Shown here in pieces: positions 48,301-51,300 of a DNA stretch of 64,000 nt. The position numbers and the translations under genes are program-made. Source of the stretch: Eledone cirrhosa (lineage: Eukaryota); the NCBI GenBank assembly GCA_964016885.1, contig OZ024748.1:43276001-43340000 (forward strand), in the 5' to 3' direction. Every line of letters begins with the position of its first letter. Position 1 is the stretch's first letter. The notes beneath the pieces were generated by a model. That model searched no databases. It saw only the letters and a program-made list of their open reading frames with translations, and was not told the origin of the DNA.

Positions 48301-51300
48301 TAACATATGTAATATTACACATCTAACAGATGCGTAAAATTACACATCCAACAGATATCTAATATTACAAATCTAACATATGTAATATTACACATCTAAC
48401 AGATGCATAAAATTACACATCCAACAGATATCTAATATTACAAATCTAATATATGTAATATTACACATCTAACAGATGCGTAAAATTACACATCCAACAG
48501 TTATCTAACATTACAAATCTAACATATGTAATATTACACATCTAACATGTGTAAAATTACACATCCAACAGTTATCTAATATTACAAATCTAACATATGT
48601 AATATTACACATCTAACAGATGCGTAAAATTACACATCCAAAGATATCTAATATTACAAATCTAACATATGTAATATTACACATCTAACAGATGCGTAAA
48701 ATTACACATCCAACAGATATCTAATATTACAAATCTAACATATGTAATATTACACATCCAACAGGTGGGTAATATTGCACATTTAACAGATGTGTAAAAT
48801 TACACATCTAACAAAAGACGGTGGATTGGCAGTATCAGTAGAGGGCCGTGCTATGCTTTGAAGTATAAAGTTATGGCCCTTTACGTTCTGAGTTCAAATC
48901 CCACCAAGGTTAACTATGCCTCTCATCCTTACAGGATCGATAAAATAAAGTACCAGTAATGTACTGGGGTAATTGCTGGCCTTGTGCCAAAAGTAGAAAC
49001 AATTATTACATATCTGTTAGATGTGTAATATTACACATCTAAAAGTTATGTAATTTAACACACCCAACAAATGTGTAATATTACACACCTAACAGTTATG
49101 TAATTTAACACACCCAACAAATGTGTAATATTACACACCTAACAGTTATGTAATTTAACACACCCAACAAATGTGTAATATTACACACCTAACAGTTATG
49201 TAATTTAACACACCCAACAAATGTGTAATATTACACACCCAACAAATGTGTAATATTACACACCTAACAGTTATGTAATTTAACATACCCAACAAATGTG
49301 TAATATTGCACACCACCTAACAGTTATGTAATTTAACACACCCAACAAATGTGTAATATTACACACCTAACAGTTATGTAATTTAACACACCTAACAAAT
49401 GTGTAATATTACACACCTAACAGTTATGTAATTTAACATACCCAACAAATGTGTAATATTGCACACCACCTAACAGTTATGTAATTTAACACACCCAACA
49501 AATGTGTAATATTACACACCTAACAGTTATGTAATTTAACACACCCAACAAATGTGTAATATTACACACCTAACAGTTATGTAATTTAACATACCCAACA
49601 AATGTGTAATATTGCACACCACCTAACAGTTATGTAATTTAACACACCCAACAAATGTGTAATATTACACACCTAACAGTTATGTAATTTAACACACCCA
49701 ACAAATGTGTAATATTACACACCTAACAGTTATGTAATTTAACATACCCAACAAATGTGTAATATTGCACACCACCTAACAGTTATGTAATTTAACACAC
49801 CCAACAAATGTGTAATATTACACACCTAACAGTTATGTAATTTAACACACCCAACAAATGTGTAATATTACACACCTAACAGTTATGTAATTTAACATAC
49901 CCAACAAATGTGTAATATTGCACACCACCTAACAGTTATGTAATTTAACACACCCAACAAATGTGTAATATTACACACCTAACAGTTATGTAATTTAACA
50001 CACCCAACAAATGTGTAATATTACACACCCAACAAATGTGTAATATTACACACCCAACAGTTACATAATTCAACACAGCCAACAAATGTGTAATATTACA
50101 CACCAAACAGTTACGTAATTCAACACAGCCAACAAATGTGTAACATTACACATCTAATAGTTATGTAATTCAACACAGCCAACAAATGTGTAATATTACA
50201 CACCAAACAGTTACGTAATTCAACACAGCCAACAAATGTGTAATATTACACATCTAATAGTTATGTAATTCAACACAGCCAACAAATGTGTAATATTACA
50301 CATCTAATAGTTATGTAATTCAACACAGCCAACAAATGTGTAATATTACACATTTAATAGTTATGTAATTCAACACAGCCAACAAATGTGTAATATTACA
50401 CATCTAATAGTTATGTAATTCAACACAGCCAACAAATGTGTAATATTACACATCTAATAGTTATGTAATTCAACACAGCCAACAAATGTGTAATATTACA
50501 CACCTAACAGATATGTTTAATATTTCACCATATACCCAGTATTCACTGAATATTTTACTGTATTAAAAGTCTTTATCAGTTCAACCAAAATAGTTCCATG
50601 TTAGACACTCCTTTGTCTGGTGAAACAATTACATCGCAGAGTCTTAATATTAAATTCTTTCTATAACAATAAAATAACATTTAATTCTAAAGCTACATTC
50701 CTCACAGAACATTTTAAAGACAGAGAGAGAGAGAGAGAGAGAGAGAGAGAAAGAGGCACAGAGAAAGACAGACATAGATAGATAGAGAGAGAGAAAGGCA
50801 CAAAGACTGGCAGACATAGATAAAGTGCTAGACACAGAGAGAGAAAGATATGATAGGCAGAGAGTGAGAGAGAGAGAGAGAAAGAGAGAGAAAGATATAT
50901 ATATATATATATATACAATATTAATAAATGGAAACTATATTTATAAAACCATATTTATTTCATTATATATATTTCAAGGATACCAAGTTAAATCATGGTA
51001 TGCCTTCATCAGACAAAATATCTATTTGTAAAACTGTTATATATTGTATTTTGTCTGATGAAGGCATACCATGATTTAACTTGGTATCCTTGAAATATAT
51101 ATAATGAAATAAATATGGTTTTATAAATATAGTTTCCATTTATTAATATTGTATATATACTCCAAATATTTGTCGAGTGCTTTATATCAGTTATAATAAT
51201 ATTTGCTTGTTGTATCCCAACAATTTAAATTGAACTTTTGCATATATATATATATATAGAGAGAGAGAGAGAGAGAGAGGCACAGAGATTGACAGACATA

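Follow-up and report, generated by a model that had tools for sequence, protein, structure and literature searches.

A hammerhead-bearing foldback in an intron of Eledone cirrhosa as a probable two-armed insertion of a Penelope-like element

Insertion units of EN+ Penelope-like elements (PLEs) have been described in which a pLTR adjoins an inverted, 5′-truncated copy, a tail is present at one end, the target is (TA)n and the pLTR contains a hammerhead ribozyme (Craig et al. 2021, PMC8557442, Fig. 2 legend and text). The minimal and dimeric type I hammerheads of PLEs likewise lie in pLTRs and have a conserved core and a palindromic helix III region (Cervera and De la Pena 2014, PMC4209133); in passages of that study, a single minimal PLE hammerhead showed no detected cleavage, and dimers cleaved at a low level. 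According to passages of PMC7229834, invertebrate type I hammerheads whose helix III has 2 bp cleave as monomers, and the monomer rates given there include a kobs of ~0.8 per min for coral and 22% in 1 h for axolotl Amex2. Non-LTR retrozymes carry type I hammerheads related to PLE pLTRs and form head-to-tail arrays (PMC7229834; bioRxiv 10.64898/2026.07.22.740005, in the parts cited here). In Poseidon of Anolis (PAc), the tail lies between, and is set by, two RT start sites, uncut RNA is the main template and the target is AT-rich (excerpts of Frangieh et al. 2024, PMC11167929).

The locus described here shares the listed features of EN+ PLE units and of PLE hammerheads, has a type I hammerhead as retrozymes do, and appears to share with PAc the two start sites, the uncut template and the AT-rich target. 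It differs from the EN+ units in the length of the tail (~89 nt here, 30-40 in the text of PMC8557442) and in that the copy studied is without ORF sequence. From the hammerheads in the excerpts of PMC4209133 it differs by an 8-nt palindrome, a long stem II closed by A-U and no extra base between positions 9 and 10.1, and Rfam models give it no score. Retrozymes are arranged head to tail, whereas this locus is head to head with one ribozyme per strand; PAc belongs to another clade, and its ribozyme overlaps the ORF start.

The window analysed is a 64-kb stretch (64,000 nt) of contig OZ024748.1. A first-pass annotation of it had noted a perfect inverted duplication, and this was confirmed: 50908-51020 and 51047-51159 form 113-nt arms that are 100% complementary, while in doublet shuffles of 50521-51800 (n=100) the longest perfect inverted match was 18 nt. 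The 26-bp spacer of that annotation held in part, since 26 nt do separate the arms, but these nucleotides are element sequence of the right arm and represent the extra 5′ reach of the tailed arm. The terminal 3 nt of the left 113-nt arm (50908-50910) are (TA)n target, and the two element-derived arms overlap by 4 nt where they meet (Table 1). The sequence from 51021 to 51241 aligns with other genomic copies at 98-99% along its length. Judged by its sequence, the locus is a 5′-truncated insertion of a young Hydra-clade PLE into (TA)n. GA-rich units at 50734-50868 and 51256-51343, 72-85% alike, flank the insertion; they are likely an older tandem repeat, too diverged for a target-site duplication.

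Table 1. Features of the foldback locus and its surroundings (positions in the window; R, reference positions on natural copy L031)
Feature	Positions	Strand	Basis or remark
Host intron of extended-synaptotagmin-like gene	46893..51405	-	GT/AG ends, in-frame flanking exons, SMP_LBD matches
(TA)n target, left side, inside GA-rich repeat	50895..50910		element homology stops at R4138 equivalent
Tail-less arm: inverted 5′-truncated PLE 3′ end (pLTR), host-sense	50911..51020	-	R4029-4141 of L031, 99%; last 3 positions are (TA)n overlap
Type I hammerhead motif, sense in E-Syt pre-mRNA, predicted cut 50964	50956..51020	-	motif, folding, covariation
4-nt overlap at head-to-head junction	51017..51020		mapping on L031
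pLTR part of tailed arm, including the 26-nt 'spacer' 51021-51046	51017..51156	+	R3999-4227 (L031), 99%
Type I hammerhead motif, host-antisense, predicted cut after 51103	51047..51111	+	motif scan
Tail: in the full-length element follows the 5′ pLTR and precedes the ORF	51157..51245	+	same sequence after both L031 pLTRs; ends at R4227
(TA)n target, right side	51246..51257		sequence
Upstream host exon	51406..51472	-	in-frame; run X4 contig match

The minus-strand copy had been placed in sense orientation within an intron of an extended-synaptotagmin (E-Syt) gene, an assignment that the GT/AG ends and in-frame exons uphold. The host exons lie on the minus strand at 52930-53006, 51406-51472 and 46803-46892. 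Two of these three neighbouring exons gave SMP_LBD matches that are weak and below the Pfam cut-off (E 0.015 and 8.7e-6), and the Pfam search found no SMP_LBD match in the middle one. A 2503-nt contig of run X4 coincides exactly with 51406-51472, with zero differences, as expected of a spliced transcript. The same intron contains a 25/50-nt minisatellite at 49500-50500, and a second, very high-copy repeat of extreme contig depth lies just past the exon at 51509-51800.

The hammerhead parts named in the first-pass annotation (an 8-bp stem I with two G.U pairs, CUGAUGA, a stem II of about 10 bp with a C.C mismatch, and GAAA) are present on each strand. In the plus copy, stem I pairs 51047-54 with 51104-11, CUGAUGA occupies 51055-61, stem II (51062-91) has 9 pairs and one C.C, and GAAA (51092-95) leads into AUAUAUAU at 51095-102, with the predicted cut after A51103; the minus copy mirrors it. 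A palindromic stem III had also been claimed. The palindrome is there, but only ~2 bp can form within one copy. A loose hammerhead scan of the 64-kb window found no motifs beyond the two arm copies. Rfam gave no hammerhead at the locus, either at gathering or at E<=10, and the ribozyme call therefore rests on motif and covariation; hairpin-type miRNA matches in Rfam, far under gathering, were rejected as an effect of the perfect hairpin. A 42-nt-arm hairpin and a CUGAUGA-containing stretch (52098-52181 and 52346-52362) failed the hammerhead scans and are possibly decayed repeats.

Covariation was assessed in 14 related motifs of <90% identity that had been selected on the core, stem I, proximal stem II and outer helix III pairs. 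The core CUGANGA/GAAA/UH is unchanged in all 14, as selection for the core entails; 92.9% of cells are paired, with 45 double changes, against at most 53% in slid controls. For the two central helix III pairs, which lay outside the selection, 27 of 28 cells are paired, with 5 double changes. A competing register of stem II in which A9 is paired (-9.1 vs -6.0 kcal/mol) was rejected, covariation favouring the canonical one. Helix III is self-complementary in 75 of 96 distinct motifs from the fetched loci, and its innermost pair joins adjacent bases, so that it forms only between two copies. The helix III hairpin alone was calculated at +4.7 kcal/mol, and the active monomer fold at -2.8 kcal/mol against -12.5 for the ensemble (nearest-neighbour energies, without tertiary contacts). 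The palindromic helix III thus likely specifies a dimer-dependent ribozyme that is weak as a monomer. The hammerhead would then act as a dimer in tandem element RNA, and a lone sense copy would likely be weak; it may nevertheless not be inert, since the monomers with a 2-bp helix III in the text of PMC7229834 do cleave.

The ribozyme 50-mer has 239 exact copies in the genome (reversed control, 0), and 51021-51241 is a young repeat, all 40 copies scored of 1015 candidates being 98-100% identical. One long copy (L031, on C5) comprises an inverted arm, a pLTR, a tail, a frameshifted ORF, a 3′UTR, a second pLTR and tail, and (TA)n; the hammerhead lies inside the pLTR. An open 742-aa ORF was present at 2 of 12 ORF loci (L035 and L041) and contains the RT motifs FDITMG and YRDD. 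The parent ORF has 208 homologues; among those that carry a name, the closest come from the octopod Argonauta hians. Sequence searches of Pfam and PDB did not recognise it as RT or GIY-YIG; a structure model from a 16-sequence alignment had a pLDDT of 82, and its six best fold matches were telomerase RTs. A YVG motif occurs at 635, and one weak GIY-YIG match, under the cut-off, was found in homologue P0089 only (1 of 16 members, E 3.7e-4).

The features of the Hydra clade were taken from PMC8557442 (section 11). The L035 ORF has RWR37, DKT118, CNCRNKSNC601, and CDLC699 and CRH726 (CxxC and CxH around E/N), and it has no CX2-5CxxC, an absence that the Hydra description demands. (TA)n was read by eye at the locus flanks across copies, as the Hydra target requires. 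The parent element, assigned by these motifs, fits the Hydra clade, with which it shares RW[K/R], DKT, a CxCX5C linker, CxxC and CxH around E/N, (TA)n and a hammerhead, and may share a C-terminal GIY-YIG-like domain; it differs from the description in PMC8557442 by RWR in place of RWK and by a unit of ~4.1 kb, a consequence of its long 3′UTR, where generally <3 kb is given. Naiad/Chlamys elements (N-terminal endonuclease, no canonical hammerhead) were rejected, the RT motifs preceding the endonuclease-like region and a hammerhead being present; domain order and motifs likewise exclude Naiad or Nematis, and a non-LTR retrozyme of head-to-tail monomers was rejected in the absence of a second same-strand copy at the locus. 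Compared with the published text, the family is new within a known clade, although the supplements of PMC8557442 could hold related Hydra families; the insertion layout has already been published there (Craig et al. 2021).

How often this layout recurs was examined at the 80 loci behind the first 100 of the 239 exact matches, mapped on L031. Element 3′ ends fall into two classes, tail-less (window 51156, scored R4141 through the TA overlap) and tailed (51245). Among the matches listed, 55 of 80 loci were scored bipartite (54 after L117, really an internal inversion, was dropped as a miscall) and 25 solo, two of the latter with a short opposite-strand tail stub; two-armed loci could be listed through either arm, so these bipartite shares are inflated. 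The PLE layout of pLTRs, inverted 5′-truncated copy and one-sided tail is present in L031, and a tail-less end is paired with a tailed one at 50 of the 54 head-to-head loci among the matches listed (exceptions L081, L089, L144 and L153). All 19 loci with at least two exact matches are head to head, and at 38 of 80 the ribozyme core is covered by the partner arm, both again among the matches listed. Contigs leaving the element at 51159 into (TA)n numbered 79, 65 and 54 in runs X1, X2 and X3. Of 56 junctions (including the window and L117), 29 overlap by 1-26 nt, 4 are flush and 23 leave a gap. Of 155 arms, sampled for an intact core, 122 extend across it, so the templates of these 122 were uncut; none of the 155 begins at the cut site and one begins 3 nt downstream. 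Among gene-body foldbacks, which represent several families, 13 of 19 have one short and one long end.

Individual copies showed further peculiarities. At position 51157 the window's tailed arm carries A, against C in 37 of 38 tailed arms; this base equals the (TA)n flank of the other arm and lengthens the perfect repeat, and is either a point change or an arm-to-arm conversion. The arms of L141:3395-7399 differ at reference positions 4055, 4062, 4063, 4072 and 4132, sites variable in other copies, which suggests, from this single case, two different RNA templates in one insertion. At L089:3451-3558 (1 of 80 loci) one of the arms terminates at the helix III palindrome, at precisely the position of the ribozyme cut, and (TA)n follows; either priming on the palindrome or on a 5′ cleavage product would account for it. 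L136, considered as a two-subfamily foldback, was rejected because its apparent partner arm is a separate insertion. A self-complementary site (R3940-3959), upstream of the ribozyme, holds the 5′ ends of 21 arms and is a hot spot for head-to-head joining. At L166 (C3:169.27-169.30 Mb), a 310-nt tandem array of six hammerheads runs antisense to a myosin gene beside one inverted copy, like a retrozyme array with a foldback. The tailed arm is host-sense in 11 of 13 gene-body foldbacks with clear ends (L154-L253; p=0.02, post hoc and small), or in 11 of 14 with the window added (p=0.057); a strand bias in the nicking of transcribed DNA could produce such a lean, as could selection acting on the tail.

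Very probably, the window locus is a two-armed, 5′-truncated insertion of this Hydra-clade PLE into (TA)n in which both target ends primed reverse transcription and the cDNAs were joined head to head, the foldback and its hammerheads being a likely by-product of integration. After endonuclease cleavage of the (TA)n target, each DNA end would start reverse transcription on element RNA at a site of its own, the tail-less one in one case and the tail site, ~89 nt further, in the other, where a small number of A/U bases would match (TA)n; this is proposed here by analogy with the two RT start sites of anole Poseidon. The two short cDNAs would then join at their far ends, the junction being sealed by microhomology, although the gap rather than overlap at 23 of 56 junctions counts against this reconstruction. 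Both 3′ ends face outward, so that any transcript crossing the unit reads the antisense arm first. This order, claimed for the pre-mRNA in the first-pass annotation and borne out here, was seen in 19 of 19 gene-body foldbacks; it needs no selection, because the head-to-head geometry standard for PLEs yields it in either direction of transcription. The claimed pairing of the antisense arm with the ribozyme is likewise favoured by prediction, the foldback being calculated at -165 kcal/mol against -72 with the ribozyme enforced, a gain of 93 kcal/mol, and the sense hammerhead of this locus too would be buried in the hairpin.

Two other origins can be weighed against priming from both target ends. 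A single arm might have been inserted first and the inverted one added later, through local foldback of the DNA or through repair that copied the arm already present. The identity of the window arms would suit such copying, as would the base at 51157, found in 1 of 38 tailed arms and equal to the other arm's (TA)n flank; identical arms are, however, to be expected while a family is young (no difference is seen in 10 of 36 arm pairs, the mis-paired L136 being one of the 36), the L141 arms differ at sites variable elsewhere, and the inverted arm breaks off at the tail-less end seen across the family, a coincidence unexpected of a local copy. Copying after insertion is accordingly very unlikely. 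That the hairpin is a non-autonomous, MITE-like foldback element, or a retrozyme, mobile as a unit, is more improbable still and can hardly be credited. It is short, perfect, repeated and found at TA-rich sites, and retrozymes are related to PLE pLTRs in the literature excerpted above, but its sequence is continuous with an autonomous ORF-bearing element, no tandem monomer array is present at the locus, and junction positions vary between loci, the exact junction of the window recurring at none of the 80 among the matches listed.

A third possibility accepts priming from both ends and adds a filter on its products: cutting nascent pre-mRNA, lone sense hammerheads would be lost in part from introns, whereas the antisense arm would silence foldbacks and let them persist. 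The first-pass annotation had offered shielding as the reason why inverted copies are tolerated in introns, and had proposed a genome-wide test for an excess of intact sense copies in foldbacks over solos. Both the antisense-first order and the 93 kcal/mol hairpin advantage would suit a filter, as would monomer activity of the kind in PMC7229834 and the under-representation of Xenopus retrozymes in introns (bioRxiv 10.64898/2026.07.22.740005, in part). On the by-product side, introns cut by a hammerhead are still spliced according to Dye 2006 and Fong 2009, as cited in the text of PMC2995048. Orientation was scored in 23 gene bodies (951 kb) defined by collinear myosin or kinesin exons; many copies come from two long genes, nested genes were kept, and the counts are raw for generic antisense bias. 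Retroelements within introns commonly show an antisense lean from other causes, which speaks against reading any such lean as a filter. The library search used 121 motifs minus 10 non-recurrent ones, an omission that leaves out, among others, the L166 tandem array and inverted copy counted by the strict descriptor below, and found 70 copies; 19 foldbacks account for 39 of them and solos for 31 (13 sense vs 18 antisense, p=0.47). Among unshielded solos, those with an intact core numbered 9 in sense and 17 in antisense (p=0.17), those with a broken core 4 and 1 (Fisher p=0.13 vs intact); with a strict descriptor and the window's gene included, solos were 7 vs 17 (p=0.064; reversed control, 1). 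These trends lie in the direction of a filter, yet every comparison has p>0.05. In this sample the excess so sought was not significant, intact copies lying in foldbacks in 18 of 27 sense and 18 of 35 antisense cases (18/9 vs 18/17, p=0.30), and the foldback share in genes (39/70) is not significantly above that in unselected flanks (45/94, p=0.35). The nine intact unshielded sense copies, one of them partly covered, occupy 4 genes, so an intact sense hammerhead can persist in an intron without shielding. Because the trend fits the first-pass annotation and power was ~0.32 for a two-fold deficit (95% interval of the sense share of intact solos, 0.17-0.56), weak selection or a partial deficit could exist. 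A filter of this kind is nonetheless rather unlikely, and the explanation of why inverted copies are tolerated finds a weak, non-significant trend. Equally doubtful is the further suggestion that PLE integration supplies its own antidote, with two-ended priming always setting the antisense arm first and lone sense hammerheads thinned about two-fold from introns. A partial literature search found no published neutralisation, foldback-shielding or twin-priming model for PLE foldbacks.

The locus is real but ordinary, one of many such insertions in the genome, where the 951 kb of gene bodies hold 50 hammerhead-bearing insertions, about one every 19 kb. The pairing at 50 of 54 loci puts a number on a layout that the text of PMC8557442 describes in words, and so near-strict a pairing of tail-less and tailed ends is consistent with both target ends having primed at two RT start sites. 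The genome is also suited to testing the harm of PLE hammerheads to host transcripts, for which ~100 intronic solos would be enough, giving 90% power against a two-fold deficit. Were the antidote reading true, it would give the first population-level indication of in vivo cleavage of host pre-mRNA by PLE hammerheads.
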